Source: Planctomycetota bacterium (lineage in GTDB: Bacteria; Planctomycetota; MHYJ01; WSZJ01). From it: 64,000 nucleotides of DNA. This document shows, one piece after another, positions 35,543 through 42,875 of the stretch. The stretch is taken from positions 144,082 through 208,081 of the forward strand of contig JBBTCT010000009.1 in NCBI GenBank assembly GCA_038060895.1, given 5' to 3'. Made by a program: the position numbers and the translations under genes. Each line of letters opens with the position of its first letter. Position 1 is the stretch's first letter. Under the pieces are notes generated by a model. That model ran no database searches, had not been told where the DNA came from, and saw only the letters and a list, made by a program, of their open reading frames with translations.

Positions 35543-36883
<1,341 letters not shown>

Positions 36884-36884
36884 G

Positions 36885-38078
36885 CTACTTCGCCGGCAGC
36901 CATCCGAGCAGCACGGTTGCGCCCTCACGCAGTCGGAAAGCCCCGGAGCCGTCCGGCGCGCACACCCAGGTTTCGCGGTGGGACTCCCTGACGCGCGGGT
37001 CGTCGCCATTGCTCTTGACTCCGCGCTCGAACGCCACGGCCGTCCCGTCCGGCGACCAGAGCAGGCTCGCGAATGCCAGGACGCAACCTCCGTCCGCACA
37101 AACCGTGGTTCCCAGGTTAGCCGTCTTGATGCCTTCAAGGTCCCGAATGACTCCCTCCAGCATGTAACCCTTTGACAGTTTCGTGTACGCCAATCGACGG
37201 CCGTCCGGGGACCAGGTCGCGCCTCCGCACCTGCCGGCCGCGATCACCTCGCCCGCTTCGCCGGAAACCGGGCAGATCCGAAGTCCCGTTTCCTCCGCCA
37301 GGGCAAAGCGCTTTCCGTCCGCCGACCATGCGACCTGCTCCGGGCGCGTTTGCCCTGCCTTCGCGACCGTCTTCCATTCTCCCGAGCTGAACGTGAGGAG
37401 ATCCACGGTGCACTCGAGCGTTGCCAGCGATTCCGAACGGACCGCGAGGAGGCGCGCGCCGTCCGGGGAAACGGAGATCTGGCTGACGTACAGGCCGTCG
37501 GTCACCTTTTTCACGGCGCCCTGCTCCCAGACGTACAGATCGCTGGACCCTTTCTTTGAGCCCACCAGGTGCGCGGTGAAGGCAAAGCGATCCGGGCCGC
37601 ACCAGGCGGATTCTCCGAGAAGCGCGCGCTCGCCCTGCGCGGGCCAGACTTTCACTCGGGTTTCCGGCTTTGCGACGTCTGCGATTTCGATCGTTGTGTT
37701 GTCTTTGCCGTCTCCCGTCAGGGCAATGCGAGTCCCTGCGTCATTGAGGGAGGCGCGAGCGTGGCCCTTGAACGCGGCGATTTCAGGAAACGCAAGGTCG
37801 AGGGCGTCGTGAATGCGGACGAACGCGCGCGCCTCGGCGTCGTATCCGGAAACGATGAACCGGCCTGAAATGAACCGGGCGGCGCTGTTGCCCTGGCGGA
37901 TGGCGATGGATGCCGGGGAGGCGAGCAACTTTCCCGAGGGCGCCACGACATGGAGCTTGTGGCTTTCGTCGAGGATCACAATGCGGCCTGCGCCATCAAA
38001 GCGGTCCCGCTCGGCGGTTTCGGCCAGTAGCGGTGACTGTAAGGCGACGAGCGCGAGCGAGGCGAGGAAGGGGCGCAT
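36885..38078 (-). CDS. secreted TolB/WD40-like beta-propeller protein
   Basis: Signal peptide; repeated WSPDG / VSPDG / WSADG motifs. Confidence 0.75.
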   Translation of the reverse strand: MRPFLASLALVALQSPLLAETAERDRFDGAGRIVILDESHKLHVVAPSGKLLASPASIAIRQGNSAARFISGRFIVSGYDAEARAFVRIHDALDLAFPEIAAFKGHARASLNDAGTRIALTGDGKDNTTIEIADVAKPETRVKVWPAQGERALLGESAWCGPDRFAFTAHLVGSKKGSSDLYVWEQGAVKKVTDGLYVSQISVSPDGARLLAVRSESLATLECTVDLLTFSSGEWKTVAKAGQTRPEQVAWSADGKRFALAEETGLRICPVSGEAGEVIAAGRCGGATWSPDGRRLAYTKLSKGYMLEGVIRDLEGIKTANLGTTVCADGGCVLAFASLLWSPDGTAVAFERGVKSNGDDPRVRESHRETWVCAPDGSGAFRLREGATVLLGWLPAK

Positions 38079-38166
38079 TCGTGTCTCCGTGTGGGTTTCG
38101 CCACTATGACGAGCGAAGTGGGTCGGAAGTTCGGTGAAATCCGGTCTTTTCGGGCAGGGGAGCGCG

Positions 38167-38451
38167 TCAGGAGGTGCGCGCAGGCGGCGAGGCCGCGTTC
38201 TTCTCGGGCACCGGGTCCGGCCCGAATCCGCCCCAGGGGTGGCAGCGGCACAGCCGTTTCAGGCCGAGCCAGCCGCCGACGAACAGGCCGCGTTTCTGAA
38301 GCGCCTCCAGGCAGTACGCGCCGCAGGTCGGCTGAAAGCGGCAGACGTCGGGCATGATGCGCGAGAGAGTCATGCGGTAGACCCACATGCCGCCGATGCA
38401 GATCCAGCGCAGGGGTTCGAACGGCCACTCGTACCAGGGAATCTTCATCAT
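38167..38451 (-). CDS. yidD: membrane protein insertion efficiency factor YidD
   Basis: CRFQPTCGAY, LKRLCRCHPWGGFGPDPVP; overlaps the stop of the upstream DUF1223 gene. Confidence 0.92.
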   Translation of the reverse strand: MMKIPWYEWPFEPLRWICIGGMWVYRMTLSRIMPDVCRFQPTCGAYCLEALQKRGLFVGGWLGLKRLCRCHPWGGFGPDPVPEKNAASPPARTS

Positions 38452-39218
38452 TTCACCGCAGCCAGGTCCTTCCATTCGAGGCGCTTCGCTCCGAGCACTT
38501 TTCTCGTCGCGGGGTCGCGGGCCACGATCGCCAGGTAGACATTGGCCGTCTTCCAGTCTCCTCCGAGCGGGATATCGAATCCGGTGTTGCCGTCTTTGTC
38601 TGGCGTTGAAGGCCTGGAGAGAAAGCGGACGACTCCGTGCTCAGTGACCGTGTGACCCTTGAGCTCCCCCGCCTTGATCTCGGTGGTCAGGTTGTTCTCA
38701 GCCACCGCGACCGTCACTTCGACCGCCTGTTTCACGTCGGGCGGCAGAGTGACCCTCGCTTCAACGAACGCGTTGACCGCCCGGACTTTCCCGGAGGCCG
38801 TAATGGTCGCGGCCGCCGTGGCCTTGCCGTCGTCGTCGATTCGCTTCACGGCCTGCCCCATGTTCGACGTGTGTATCGCGCCGCTCACGACGATCATCGG
38901 CGTGTACATCCCCTTGCTCGCGAGCGGCTTCTCGTACGCCTTCTGCGCTTCCGTCATCTGTTTCGAACCGAATGGGTCCTTCCATCCGAGCCGGTCCCAG
39001 TAGTCCACGTGGTAGACGAGCGCGATTGCGTTCTCGAAGCCCTTCTCCTGCTTCGCAATTTTCCCGAGGAACTCCTCGGCGGGCGGGCAGGATTCTCACC
39101 CCTGGCTGGAGAAGAGTTCGACAAGCACGGGGGTGCCTCCGGGTTTGGGATCCTCGCCGGCGGTGAGCGTGGCGAGAAGGGGAGTGAGCGCGAGGGCGAA
39201 GATGGCGGAGAAGCGCAT
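38448..39218 (-). CDS. secreted DUF1223 thioredoxin-like probable selenoprotein (UxxC); UGA at 39098-39096
   Basis: SD AGGAG; signal peptide; PVLVELFSSQG-TGA-ESCPPAE...YHVDYWDRLGWKDPF...YTPMIVV in one frame; the family consensus is VELFTSQGCSSCPPA. Confidence 0.87.
39064..39079 (-). promoter_or_regulatory. candidate bacterial SECIS hairpin
   Basis: CCGAGG-(AGUU)-CCUCGG perfect 6-bp stem; loop starts 22 nt after the UGA, with GU at loop positions 2-3. Confidence 0.6.
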
Positions 39219-39264
39219 GCGATGAACTCCTGTTCGTGTCCGGCGTGATTGTAACCGCGACGGA

Positions 39265-39636
39265 TCAGCGCGGGCCCAGGGGTTCAGGTCCGCCGTCCGC
39301 GGGCGCGGCCTTGCGGGCAAGCTTGACGACCGAAGCGGCGACTTCGGCGAGCGTGAGGTTGATGGTTTTCCGGGGCAGGAAGAGATAGTCCCAGCCCGGC
39401 GTCAGTTCTTCGCGGTGCAGGCGGAACGACTCCCGCAGCAATCTCTTGATTCGGTTGCGGATGGGTTTCGCCCGCACGTGCTTCCCGACGACGATGCCGA
39501 GCCGGGGAAGGCCGAGTCCGTTGGGGCGGGCGTGGAGTTGCAGGACGCCATCCCTCGCTTTGTGGGCGGAAGCGAAGGCCTGGTCGAATTCGTCGCGGCG
39601 GGTGAGGCGGAGGAGTTTGGGATAATTGTTGGGCAC
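39265..39636 (-). CDS. rnpA: ribonuclease P protein component
   Basis: YPKLLRLTRRDEF, PRLGIVVGK, RNRIKRLLRESFRL; C-terminal part of the 39265..41286 track ORF; GTG at 39636. Confidence 0.9.
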   Translation of the reverse strand: MPNNYPKLLRLTRRDEFDQAFASAHKARDGVLQLHARPNGLGLPRLGIVVGKHVRAKPIRNRIKRLLRESFRLHREELTPGWDYLFLPRKTINLTLAEVAASVVKLARKAAPADGGPEPLGPR

Positions 39637-39753
39637 GCGAAGAGCATAGCGGATCCGGCCGCTCTCCAGCCAAGAGGGAAACTGCATACCTTTGCGCGCG
39701 AAGAGCGCGCGCCGTACATTCCTCGCGTCTCTTGTGAGGGACGCACGACCGTC

Positions 39754-40029
39754 ATGGGTTCTCCCGTCGCCTACCAATGCGTGAATCACCCGGGTCGCCC
39801 TGCGATCGGGGTCTGTGTCAAGTGCCAGGCGCCGGTGTGCCCGGACTGCACGACGAAAGTCCAGGGGATCAACCATTGCCTGTCGTGCCTGCAGCTCCGC
39901 GTCAAGCCGACCGATACTTCGATCCGCCGTCCGCCCCCGTCCGTGACGCCGGCCGGAATCGCGGCGGCATTCGCCTTCTTCGTGCTCGTATTCGCCCTTC
40001 TCGGCGCCGCGTTCGTGGCGGCGGCCTGA
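39754..40029 (+). CDS. small B-box-like zinc-finger membrane protein
   Basis: CVNHPGRPAIGVCVKCQAPVCPDC...HCLSC followed by a C-terminal TM. Confidence 0.8.
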   Translation: MGSPVAYQCVNHPGRPAIGVCVKCQAPVCPDCTTKVQGINHCLSCLQLRVKPTDTSIRRPPPSVTPAGIAAAFAFFVLVFALLGAAFVAAA

Positions 40030-40926
40030 ATGGAACTGCGCAGCACCATCCCGCTTGCTCGACGCTTCGGGCCGATGGAAGTCGTGGACTCCGCCATCTG
40101 GTTCGCGCGCGACAACGCCGTGGCGTTCGTCACCACGGCAGGGGCGGGCGGACTCGCGTTCGCCCTGGCGCTCGCGACCTGTTTCAACCGCCTGGGCGCG
40201 CTGCCGCCGGGGGCCAAGGTCGAGGACCACCTCGTCGAAGTGGCGATCTGGGGCGTCCTCCTCGCCGCGCTTTTCCTTGGCCGGGGCCTCGGTCACTGGG
40301 CCGTCGTCGAACGGCTCTCCGCGTCCCTGCGAGGGGAAACTCGTACTCCTGAGGCTTGCTGGGCCGCCGCACTGAAGAACCCGGGGGCCGCGCTCTTTCT
40401 CGCCGGCGTTCCCGGCATGGCGCAGTGGGCCGGGTTCCTCGCCATCTGGCCGGGGCTGGCGTTCATGAACCGCTGGAGCGGCGCTCTTCCGGCCGCCGTC
40501 TTCGAAAAGCTCGAGCCGGCGCGCGCGCTTCGCCGCTCCCGCGACCTCATGGCCGGGTCGAACAACGCGATGGCCGTCTGGGGATTCCTTTTCGTCGCCT
40601 GGGTCATCCTCTTCGTCAACGTGCTCTTCGCAGGAGCCATGCTCCCGGACTTCCTCCGCGGGTTCTTCGGCATCAACCTCCCTCGTTTCGAGCAGGCGGT
40701 CTCGCCAGGCAACGGCCTCTTCATCGCCGTCGCCATCGTCTTCACGTGGGCTGCGTGTGACGCGCTTCGCGCCGTGGCCTTCGCGATTCTCTACCTGAAC
40801 GCTCGGATCGAGCGGGAGGGCGGGGACCTGCAGTCGCGGCTGGAAGCGTTCAGGTCCGGGCGAAGAGCGGGGGTTGCTTCGTACAAGGCGCCGGCAGCGG
40901 AGCCGCAGGAGGCGACGCATGCGTGA
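40030..40926 (+). CDS. multi-pass membrane protein of the MoxR/DUF58 operon
   Basis: Several TM segments; ALRRSRDL and LYLNARIEREGGDL motif typical of this operon member. Confidence 0.8.
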   Translation: MELRSTIPLARRFGPMEVVDSAIWFARDNAVAFVTTAGAGGLAFALALATCFNRLGALPPGAKVEDHLVEVAIWGVLLAALFLGRGLGHWAVVERLSASLRGETRTPEACWAAALKNPGAALFLAGVPGMAQWAGFLAIWPGLAFMNRWSGALPAAVFEKLEPARALRRSRDLMAGSNNAMAVWGFLFVAWVILFVNVLFAGAMLPDFLRGFFGINLPRFEQAVSPGNGLFIAVAIVFTWAACDALRAVAFAILYLNARIEREGGDLQSRLEAFRSGRRAGVASYKAPAAEPQEATHA

Positions 40927-41755
40927 AGCGATGCTGGTGCTGCTGATGGCGGTGGCCGCGGTGGCGGGGGACGAGGAGCGGCGCGCGGAGGACCGGAATC
41001 TGCGCGGGGACGCGAAGTCCTCCAGGTACGAGGAAGCGCTGAAGGGTTGGAAAGCGAAGCGTGGTGGCGATGCGGACGATGCCGCGCGCCGCGAGCGGCT
41101 GGACCGGATCCTGCGGGAAGAAACGACGCGCGACGAGATTCCGCCGGTTCCCCGGGAGCGGGAAATTGAGAAACGGGATCCGGACAATTCGAAAGAAACG
41201 AAGCGAACTCCTCCTCTGGAGGTCAGCACGGGAGGGTCGGCCTCCGCGGCGTCAGGACTCGCCAATCTCATGTATGGAGTCCTCATCCTCCTGGCCGCCG
41301 CGGTAGTCGCATTCGCAATCTACGGGATCGTCATGGCCATCCAGCGATCCAGGCGCCGCCCGCTGAAGGACGACGCCGTCGAAGTTGTGACCGGTGAGGA
41401 GGAGCGAGGTGGGGCCGCACCGCCGATTCTGCGCGACCCGGAGGAATGGCTCGCCGAAGCCCGCCGGCTTGCGGCGGCGGGGCGCTGGATCGAGGCGCTG
41501 CGCTGCCTTCTCTTCGCTTCCCTTGAACGGCTGCACCGCATGCGCTTCATCGATTACCAGCGTGCCCGCACGAATCGCGAGTGCGTGAGGGCGTTCACGG
41601 GGCCGGACGCGCGGCGAGTGCCGTTTGGCGCGCTGGTCGATGCGTTCGACATTGCGGTTTATGGCCAGCGCCCGTTCGGCGCGGCCGATTATGCGCAGGC
41701 CGAGGCTGCCGCCCGCGAGCTCGGGAAAGGAGACGCGCATGAAGGCGTCGCCTGA
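40919..41755 (+). CDS. DUF4129 domain membrane protein
   Basis: WLAEARRLAAAGRWIEALRCL, RTNRE, FDIAVYG; 8-nt ATGCGTGA overlap. Confidence 0.82.
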   Translation: MREAMLVLLMAVAAVAGDEERRAEDRNLRGDAKSSRYEEALKGWKAKRGGDADDAARRERLDRILREETTRDEIPPVPREREIEKRDPDNSKETKRTPPLEVSTGGSASAASGLANLMYGVLILLAAAVVAFAIYGIVMAIQRSRRRPLKDDAVEVVTGEEERGGAAPPILRDPEEWLAEARRLAAAGRWIEALRCLLFASLERLHRMRFIDYQRARTNRECVRAFTGPDARRVPFGALVDAFDIAVYGQRPFGAADYAQAEAAARELGKGDAHEGVA

Positions 41756-42875
41756 GCGCGGGTGGATCGGCATCGCCGGGCTGGTCGCCTTCGCTGCGAT
41801 TCTGGTGTGGGGCGCGGTGCGGGAATTCCGGGCACGCGAGGCGCGGGGCAAGACGGACCGCGGGTCGATCTTCTCTCCCGACGCGAGCGGGACGCGGGCT
41901 CTGTTCCTGCTGCTCCGGTCCGAAGGTCTTGCCGTGACGCCGATGACGCGGCCGCCGACCGCGGCGATGGAAAAAGGGCTGCTGGTCGTGATCGACCCGG
42001 GAATCGAGATGGACAAGGATGCCGCGGGGCAGGTCGTGGACTGGATCGAATCCGGCGGCGCCGTGGTGCTCGCCGGTGAATATCTTGGCGCGCTCGGCCT
42101 GGCTCTGAAGGCCACCTCCTCGGTGCCGACTCAGAGAGAACTGGGGCTCGCGCTTCCGACTCATCGCTCGGACAGATTTGCGCTCGCGACTGGCAGCAAT
42201 TCGGAAGTTACGGTCGAAGGGGAGCGCGACGTTCTTCTCAGGCGGGACAGCGCCGCCCAGGCGGTCGAACTCGAGCGCGGCCAGGGGAAGGCCGTCCTGC
42301 TCCCGGACGCGTTCTGCGCGACGAACTCGGGACTCGACATGGCGGACAACGCTTCGTGGTGGGTCGAAACGTGCCGCCGGCTTTCGGATGGCCGGCCGGT
42401 GATGTTTCTCGAGACGGTTCACGGCTTCGCTCGCGAACCTTCTATCCCTGAATACTTCACGGACAAAGGTCTCGGTCCATTCGTGCTTCAGCTGTTTCTC
42501 GTCGCGGGCGTGCTCGTCTGGCTGCTTGGGTCCCGCAAGGCGCCGCCGCTCGCGCCCTCCATGCTGATCCGCAGGCCGGCGGCAGAGTACGCCGCGACGA
42601 TGGCACAGCTCTACAGGCAGGGGAGGTCGGAAGCGCACGCGGCGGGAGTCGCGCTCTCTGAACTCGAGGCGTGGTGGAGGCGTCCCGCTTCGGCGCGGGC
42701 GTTCGCAAGGCTCGACGCGGCGCGGAAAGCCGCGGTACTGAAGGAAATCGAATCCCTGGCGTCGGAAGGTCGCGGGCTCACGGGGCTCGCCCGGCCCGGG
42801 GAAGATGCCGTGCACGGCTGGGTGTCGCGCGCGGCGGCGTTCCGAAGGAGGGTGACCGGTGACGATCGTGAATGA
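41739..42875 (+). CDS. DUF4350 domain membrane protein
   Basis: S..PDASGTRALFLLL, WIESGG.VVL, G.GKAVLL.D...TN.GL..ADN, FLETVHG; ATG at 41739. Confidence 0.8.
   Translation: MKASPERGWIGIAGLVAFAAILVWGAVREFRAREARGKTDRGSIFSPDASGTRALFLLLRSEGLAVTPMTRPPTAAMEKGLLVVIDPGIEMDKDAAGQVVDWIESGGAVVLAGEYLGALGLALKATSSVPTQRELGLALPTHRSDRFALATGSNSEVTVEGERDVLLRRDSAAQAVELERGQGKAVLLPDAFCATNSGLDMADNASWWVETCRRLSDGRPVMFLETVHGFAREPSIPEYFTDKGLGPFVLQLFLVAGVLVWLLGSRKAPPLAPSMLIRRPAAEYAATMAQLYRQGRSEAHAAGVALSELEAWWRRPASARAFARLDAARKAAVLKEIESLASEGRGLTGLARPGEDAVHGWVSRAAAFRRRVTGDDRE

Follow-up and report, generated by a model that had tools for sequence, protein, structure and literature searches.

A predicted selenocysteine-containing form of the DUF1223 family, encoded between rnpA and yidD in a groundwater planctomycete

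INTRODUCTION

The described proteins of the DUF1223 family (PF06764), Atu2684 of Agrobacterium and SrlA of Sinorhizobium meliloti, are of the cysteine (Cys) type. SrlA, the only studied member found, is reported to be 58% identical to Atu2684, to have a thioredoxin fold and an N-terminal signal sequence, and to be needed, under CenK-CenR control, for salt and oxidant tolerance (PMC9561847); deletion of srlA leads to salt and oxidant sensitivity on solid medium (PMC9561847, PMC11328730). The family was placed in the thioredoxin-like clan through the structure 2axo (PMC3091736). The word 'selenocysteine' has no occurrence in the available part of PMC3091736, and neither that part nor the available part of PMC9561847 mentions a selenocysteine (Sec) form of Atu2684 or SrlA. 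The locus analysed here lies at 38448..39218 on the minus strand of a 64,000-nt stretch (the window) of a Planctomycetota genome (assembly GCA_038060895.1, contig JBBTCT010000009.1, positions 144,082 to 208,081) and is very probably one intact gene for a Sec-containing, exported DUF1223 protein of thioredoxin fold.

The predicted protein shares with Atu2684 and SrlA the Pfam family, the fold and the VELFTSQG-CxxC-PPA, HVDYW and TP motifs, and differs from them in having Sec for the first Cys, in a predicted selenocysteine insertion sequence (SECIS) within the codons of helix 1, and in its host, a groundwater planctomycete rather than an alpha-proteobacterium. The catalogued UxxC selenoproteins used for comparison, which are exported or of thioredoxin fold (Trx PF00085, DsbA-like PF01323, DsbG-like NF041057, the PF13098 thiol:disulfide interchange protein and Redoxin PF08534), have the same thioredoxin fold, N-terminal Sec of UxxC, Cys homologues and bacterial SECIS within the reading frame (PMC13188914); unlike them, Sec-DUF1223 has HVDYWD as an invariant motif of its own and a further, C-terminal beta-sandwich domain. 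Further, like the SECIS of E. coli fdhF and the consensus bacterial SECIS (bSECIS), the hairpin is located within the frame 3′ of the UGA, with a small loop bearing G then U and a spacing in the 16-37 nt range (PMC13188914), but its stem is short and perfect (6-7 bp) and its loop is 4 nt long.

RESULTS

A single DUF1223 reading frame with one internal TGA

The initial annotation, made from the sequence alone, had joined two listed open reading frames (ORFs) into one frame broken by a single TGA and had assigned the product to DUF1223; both readings hold. The ORF listing under translation table 11 splits the gene into minus-strand pieces at 39096..39320 and 38448..39008, which lie in one frame. 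Reading through the TGA gives 256 codons from an ATG at 39218..39216 to a TGA stop at 38450..38448, with the single internal TGA as codon 41 (39098..39096). The features of the gene are as follows.

38448..39218, minus strand: whole DUF1223 (PF06764) gene, 256 codons plus stop, predicted Sec at codon 41
39159..39218, minus strand: predicted signal peptide MRFSAIFALALTPLLATLTA/GEDP, codons 1-20, read from the sequence
39096..39098, minus strand: UGA codon 41, predicted to be read as Sec; aligns with the first Cys of CxxC in Cys forms
39087..39098, minus strand: U-E-S-C motif (UxxC), at the loop-to-helix junction following strand 1
39064..39079, minus strand: predicted SECIS hairpin CCGAGG-AGUU-CCUCGG, 6 bp, -10.8 kcal/mol
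38994..39011, minus strand: HVDYWD family motif, codons 70-75; H70, V71, D72, Y73, W74 and D75 invariant (n = 60)
38898..38903, minus strand: Thr-Pro at the cis-proline position of the thioredoxin fold, codons 106-107; T106 and P107 invariant, with strand 108-111 next
39227..39230, minus strand: GGAG, Shine-Dalgarno-like, 8 nt 5′ of the ATG

The translation, MRFSAIFALALTPLLATLTAGEDPKPGGTPVLVELFSSQG-U-ESCPPAEEFL...HVDYWDRLGWKDPF, begins with a signal-peptide-like N-terminus, continues through PVLVELFSSQG-U-ESCPPAEEFLGK... and then reaches HVDYWDRLGWKDPF and YTPMIVV. Within codons 1-20, R occupies position 2 and a hydrophobic core leads to a small-residue ending, T-L-T-A. When U is entered as C, the protein aligns with PF06764 at an E-value of 2.4e-46 (158.8 bits versus a cut-off of 30.7), which is its sole Pfam match and extends over residues 32-231, across the TGA, and over profile positions 1-199 of 202. 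Each DUF1223 motif can be read in the protein, namely HVDYW, the T-P that precedes strand 3, and ELF-x-S-Q/E-G-CxxC-P-x-A, in which U takes the column of the first Cys. Across an alignment of 60 sequences, the motif columns are invariant or nearly so, the C41 and C44 columns are invariant, and roughly twenty residues around the UxxC motif are invariant, which may hint at a specific substrate. The 3′ half of the gene is without decay, as the Pfam match reaches residue 231 and the frame stays open, with conservation at identities as low as about 30%.

By sequence, a single relative has a solved structure, PDB 2AXO (Atu2684; E-value 6.7e-22). An AlphaFold2 model built on 60 aligned sequences (predicted local distance difference test score, pLDDT, of 90.3; predicted TM-score, pTM, of 0.85) orders strand 31-37, the G40-U41-x-x-C44 turn, helix 44-55, T106-P107 and strand 108-111, with residues 138-248 forming a beta-rich C-terminal half; pLDDT falls below 50 at residues 1-3 and 16-22. 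By analogy with the thioredoxin fold, P107 may adopt the cis conformation. The N-terminal Cys of a thioredoxin-fold CxxC is the attacking nucleophile, and the modelled position of U41 between strand 31-37 and helix 44-55 would put Sec in the place of this residue. A Foldseek search of the model returned 2axo as its top match (E-value 4.2e-14, TMt 0.70), together with HBP35 (5y1a; E-value 1.0e-13, TMq 0.63) and, for the C-terminal part, Omp28 (2r2c; E-value 7.3e-05). HBP35 and Omp28, both of Porphyromonas gingivalis, have the same two-domain architecture with a C-terminal beta-sandwich, but their sequence identity is only 12-14%. HBP35 has thioredoxin-like activity, and neither protein is known to contain selenocysteine.

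The same TGA column in several phyla

The TGA recurs at one alignment column. Among 41 related genomes, 11 match the protein in a total of 14 places, ten with exactly one internal TGA and four with none; in a phylum-wide sample of 401 genomes, DUF1223 occurs in 39, with 17 matching places containing one TGA and one containing two. In every readable locus the TGA is found at the QG[U/C]xxC column; 18 distinct genomes of Planctomycetota have U there and 19 loci have C, the latter including paralogues in two genomes that also carry the U form. Four TGA-bearing matches without a locus (G102, G126, G139 and G042) were left out of this column check. The pattern is beyond chance; every checked relative with an internal TGA has it at the same column.

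Further, a degenerate DNA pattern encoding E-L-F/Y-T/S-S-Q/E-G-TGA-x-x-C-P was searched in a one-genome-per-species set of GTDB contigs, yielding 58 places, and all 58 read on in frame as DUF1223 past the TGA (E-values from 2.6e-112 to 2.5e-5). The taxa named in the record titles are Planctomycetota, Acidobacteriota (Pyrinomonadaceae and Thermoanaerobaculia), Candidatus Entotheonella, Latescibacterota, Polyangia/Myxococcales, Poribacteria, Rubrivivax and metagenome-assembled genomes (MAGs) labelled Rickettsiales; by title, these are the groups Planctomycetota, Acidobacteriota, Entotheonella, Latescibacterota, Myxococcota, Poribacteria and Pseudomonadota. The same search of JGI metagenomes found 85 stretches, 80 of which form the basis of the counts: the HxDYW motif follows within 60 codons past the U in 74 of 80, and the frame is open in 79 of 80. 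The six misses comprise three loci with little DNA, one variant motif, one loss of similarity after the motif (L145) and one early stop, 8 codons past the TGA (L174). These pattern counts are floors, because the pattern demands the motif and forms with other flanks fall outside its scope. The nearest database proteins (P0002-P0011), 169-204 aa in length, are truncated calls that start past the TGA and span 64-78% of the query. Overall, the UGA/Cys pairing anticipated at this column is borne out by many independent pairs across phyla.

A coding-region hairpin that covaries in Sec forms

The hairpin past the UGA is as the initial annotation described it, a perfect 6-bp stem with an AGUU loop, the stem beginning after a gap of 16 nt from the UGA. 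Its parts are CCGAGG (39079..39074), AGTT (39073..39070) and CCTCGG (39069..39064); the apical loop is 22 nt past the UGA and has G at loop position 2, then U. Published bSECIS rules specify an apical loop of 3-9 nt with G in its first two positions, a stem of 4-16 bp, a distance of 16-37 nt from the UGA and a minimum free energy at or below -7.5 kcal/mol (PMC13188914), and the window hairpin lies within all four constraints. When the rules are applied in strict form, with a contiguous stem only, a conforming hairpin is found in 50 of 60 distinct Sec forms, 60 of 78 metagenome forms and 3 of 19 Cys forms. The mean folding energy of nt 13-42 is -11.7 kcal/mol in Sec forms (n = 60) versus -6.2 kcal/mol in Cys forms (n = 19), with mean z-scores against shuffles of -1.95 and +0.10, respectively.

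Compensatory changes were counted in two alignments, A3 with 25 distinct Planctomycetota sequences grouped by taxonomy, and A1 with all 60 distinct sequences from all phyla in one fixed register. In A3, 92.0% of cells are paired, a level that none of 500 shuffles reaches (82.7% paired); both sides have changed in 12 cells versus 1.7 in shuffles (0 of 500), four of the seven pairs are double-changed, and the covariation score is 0.268 versus 0.078; slid controls are all at or below 52.6% paired, and RNAalifold, unaided, recovers five of the seven pairs from the Planctomycetota alignment. In A1, pairing is 74.5% versus 63.2% and there are 46 versus 22 double changes, both above every shuffle.

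The position of the hairpin is fixed, with the loop beginning 21-23 nt past the UGA in most Sec forms, and the stem varies while keeping its pairing (GAGG/CCUC, GAUG/CAUC, GACG/CGUC, GAGA/UCUC, GAGC/GCUC and GAUC/GAUC, and the longer GCGGAGG/CCUCCGC and GCUGAGA/UCUCAGC). Other clades have different stems and loops in nearly the same place (GGCUGAC-CGUGC-GUUAGCC, GCGGAC-AGGUUG-GUCCGC, GCCGACA-GGU-UGUUGGC and CCGACAC-GGUC-GUGUCGG), and in Entotheonella the loop of CCCAGU-AGAUG-ACUGGG is 5 nt closer to the UGA. Because the hairpin's helix is coding, stem changes are also paired amino-acid changes, giving the peptides A-E-E-F-L-G, A-D-E-F-I/V-G, A-E-K-F-L-G and A-E/D-Q-L-L/I-G, in which E to D travels with L to I or V. 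The codons of A-E-E-F-L-G pair with each other, an RNA hairpin that constrains a protein helix. Judged by these comparisons, the hairpin is a SECIS whose predicted structure is supported by compensatory changes.

Selenocysteine machinery

All four genes, selA, selB, selC and selD, are present in the source genome. SelA is matched with an E-value of 2.3e-134, the C-terminal winged-helix domain of SelB with 9.2e-21 inside a 670-codon open frame, and SelD with 1.1e-108 (G000:C2:48628-49548). The selD gene itself has one in-frame TGA, and therefore encodes a Sec-type selenophosphate synthetase, giving the organism at least two selenoproteins. The tRNA-Sec gene lies about 11 kb from selA and scores 71.7 bits in Rfam versus a gathering score of 47.

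Full-length SelA is found in 17 of the 18 genomes with a checked TGA form (source genome included; the exception is a 67%-complete MAG), in all four genomes with unchecked TGA matches, and in 12 of 21 Cys-only genomes, being absent from the other 9; in these counts kin are not independent. The association between SelA and the TGA form runs in the direction predicted by Sec decoding.

Two further observations concern tRNA-Sec. A second ARAGORN tRNA-SeC call (G000:C1:472898-472990) has 75% G+C, a mismatched acceptor stem and no Rfam match at E-values up to 1, and is probably a false call. Directly past the tRNA-Sec gene, the stretch L192:228-326 (G000:C4) has weak matches to the same unrelated Rfam models on both strands, which suggests an inverted repeat.

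Changes between Sec and Cys forms

A FastTree phylogeny of 116 rows was calculated from 60 Sec forms and 56 Cys forms, the latter being the 19 loci and every third database hit showing the motif, with the Sec column masked as X. The tree needs at least 15 Sec/Cys changes, nine of which are forced by well-supported branches, versus 38.8 for shuffled labels. On this tree, the trait is clustered yet appears to have switched many times; the direction of the switches is not readable, because the tree is unrooted.

Several loci stand out. Two Planctomycetota Cys forms (L038 and L041, in genomes G104 and G188) are nested among Sec forms, and where Sec forms have the SECIS, L041 keeps a hairpin (GAAAAUGC loop, -9.5 kcal/mol), seemingly a remnant of a recent change from Sec to Cys. 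The genome G013 carries a Sec form with the motif U-K-V-Y, without the second cysteine (L018, contig C73), and a Cys-form paralogue (L013, contig C297); the two join on long branches in the tree, and their relation is unsure. Moreover, in three Pyrinomonadaceae/Acidobacteriota stretches (L051:2181-3035, L089:23-832 and L090:2-832) a second DUF1223 gene adjoins the Sec-form gene. Its motif has Cys in L051 and L090 (SCFNCPPAE and SCAACPPAE), and the L089 stretch starts past the motif; the other neighbour of the Sec-form gene is UvrA.

Genomic neighbourhood

The gene was initially placed between rnpA and yidD with its stop overlapping the yidD start; Pfam confirms both neighbours, and the overlap is seen as ATGA. 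The surrounding features are as follows.

39265..39636, minus strand: rnpA (RNase P protein), upstream; Pfam PF00825, E-value 1e-21
38167..38451, minus strand: yidD (membrane protein insertion efficiency factor), downstream; Pfam PF01809, E-value 3.8e-23
38448..38451, minus strand: ATGA stop/start overlap of the DUF1223 gene and yidD, from the sequence
39248..39253, minus strand: TACAAT box, candidate -10 element, upstream in six of six genus loci (L005-L010)

The order rnpA, DUF1223 gene, yidD occurs in five genomes of the source genus (G000, G002, G003, G004 and G007, with rnpA on the opposite strand in G007), and is absent from the genus member G006 and from all other loci searched. This placement is confined to one genus and is therefore not part of how the family works. 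In all five genus loci with a downstream yidD, the stop overlaps or abuts the yidD start (ATGA, GTGA or TGATG). From this conserved overlap, yidD translation in the source genus is probably coupled to translation of the full-length selenoprotein.

The TACAAT box is located about 30-45 nt 5′ of the start codon in all six genus loci, including G006, which has no upstream rnpA. A consensus promoter scan of 38000..39800 found no full sigma-70 site and no -35 partner for TACAAT; the box is a lead only, a candidate -10 element that would make the DUF1223 gene and yidD their own unit. Across lineages, Pfam searches of 105 ORFs flanking 55 Sec-form loci, the longest one on either side being taken, revealed no recurring neighbour, repeated ones being limited to UvrA in Pyrinomonadaceae and to enoyl-CoA hydratase and a solute-binding protein in Entotheonella; therefore, no dedicated partner comes with Sec-DUF1223.

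Within the window, a 673-codon minus-strand ORF (39265..41286) runs through rnpA, and 36200..42100 contains many long overlapping ORFs on both strands. Such ORFs are typical of DNA with 66% G+C, and therefore only Pfam-supported ones were taken as genes. A plus-strand ORF at 39415..40029, facing the region 5′ of rnpA, has a B-box zinc-finger match (E-value 2.6e-06, 27.9 bits versus a cut-off of 24.1); its true start is uncertain, because its 5′ end overlaps rnpA on the opposite strand.

DISCUSSION

The shared TGA column, the covarying hairpin and the encoded machinery argue, with high confidence, that the DUF1223 gene of the window is a genuine selenoprotein gene. Several points weigh against this reading. 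The support for gene intactness, hairpin and machinery comes from sequence comparison, and the source genome is a MAG, 86.5% complete and in 47 contigs. The Logan contig X1 matches the gene along its full length with no difference, yet this DNA may derive from it; X3, X6 and X9 cover the gene in parts, and the TGA is spanned by one 45-nt piece of X3 (record 7, 39069..39113, with 2 differences). Strict bSECIS rules fail for 10 of 60 Sec forms and 18 of 78 metagenome forms. Alone, the 81-nt stretch past the UGA folds no better than shuffles (z = -0.62; 55 of 200 shuffles as good), and the case for the hairpin is accordingly one of comparison and not of single-sequence energy. RNAalifold returns no consensus pairs from the ungapped all-phyla alignment of 60 sequences, which is attributed to clades differing in register and loop. 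Moreover, the hairpin lies within coding sequence and kin are not independent; part of the hairpin's conservation is therefore protein conservation. With regard to function, a C61S change in the CXXC motif of SrlA still complements the salt phenotype while altering autorepression (PMC9561847), and the redox motif may therefore serve only part of the function.

Some of these points bear on other explanations of the TGA. A pseudogene, or an assembly or sequencing error in a Cys-type gene, would be in keeping with a MAG in which contig cover of the TGA in the exact strain is thin (X1 being possibly the source and X3 a 45-nt piece), and decayed copies do exist, namely L174 with its early stop and L145 with its loss of similarity, two of the 80 metagenome loci. 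This explanation is nevertheless very unlikely, given the same-column TGA of all 58 GTDB places from several phyla and of 18 checked Planctomycetota genomes, the open and conserved frames past it, a covarying hairpin that Cys forms lack, and the residence of TGA forms in SelA-bearing genomes. UGA41 could also be read through as a residue other than Sec, by near-cognate insertion of Cys or Trp or under a reassigned code: UGA is read as another residue in some bacteria, and the identity of residue 41 comes from comparing sequences. Here, TGA terminates both the DUF1223 gene and rnpA, and the code is therefore not reassigned; the source genome encodes the full Sec machinery, the hairpin fits a SelB-type model (spacing as published, and an apical loop with G then U), and homologues carry Cys, the usual partner of Sec, at this column, leaving such readthrough highly improbable.

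Gene callers in effect predict that UGA41 is a true stop, yielding a 40-residue peptide and a separate 186-residue protein from a GTG at 39008, and the databases hold such truncated calls, as in P0002-P0011. The 186-aa product would miss the entire UxxC motif along with the signal peptide, strand 1 and helix 1; the stretch from the TGA to the GTG falls within the Pfam match and is no less conserved than the remainder, and no start is conserved there in relatives, the truncated calls beginning at different places. It is very unlikely that UGA41 is a true stop.

For a selenoprotein, UGA41 would be recoded by the ordinary bacterial route. SelA and SelD would make Sec-tRNASec, and SelB carrying it would bind the coding-region hairpin and deliver Sec to the ribosome. 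The signal peptide would then be cleaved and the mature protein would act in the periplasm, with selenol/thiol-disulfide oxidoreductase chemistry involving a selenenylsulfide between U41 and C44. By analogy with the Cys homologue SrlA, a role in envelope redox and stress protection is probable.

For the source genus, a more specific proposal can be formulated, in which the selenoprotein gene would be a selenium gate on membrane-protein biogenesis. There, yidD lacks its own start context, and in the five genus loci its ATG or GTG start overlaps the selenoprotein stop; YidD would be made mainly by ribosomes that have passed UGA41, and its levels would be set by selenium supply and SelB activity. 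For the family as a whole, Sec-DUF1223 may be a dedicated periplasmic selenoenzyme with a specific substrate, and not a general disulfide exchanger. Taken jointly, these two parts are unlikely to hold.

Sec-DUF1223 makes up a new selenoprotein family and relies on the standard bacterial mechanism, not on a new one. The expectation that DUF1223 is little described as a selenoprotein agrees with the existing catalogues. A 2026 review calls its Table 1 the most comprehensive inventory, with 119 families and subfamilies; DUF1223 is absent from the whole of that table, and PF06764, '1223' and '2axo' have no occurrence in the main text (PMC13188914). An NCBIfam search at E-values up to 0.01 matched no selenoprotein model and returned only NF033782 Omp28, at 25.4 bits versus a cut-off of 150. 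Literature searches on DUF1223 selenoproteins, COG5429 and PF06764/IPR010634/pfam06764 found no description, though the supplements of other selenoproteome surveys could hold one. A single planctomycete candidate, labelled a 'hypothetical' selenoprotein and with a Cys hit in Rhodopirellula sallentina, appears in Table S9 of one survey; the table does not reveal its family, which could be DUF1223 or another (PMC4807772).

The finding would add a widespread, thioredoxin-fold family, predicted to be exported, to the prokaryotic selenoproteome; at least six phyla contain Sec forms, in lineages that include soil, groundwater and marine bacteria and sponge symbionts. At present these genes are split or truncated by gene callers, and the fix would need a DUF1223 selenoprotein model with a translation exception. 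Moreover, the link of SrlA to envelope stress tolerance gives the Sec forms a testable phenotype, and the natural Sec/Cys switches could help to show what a periplasmic oxidoreductase gains from selenium.

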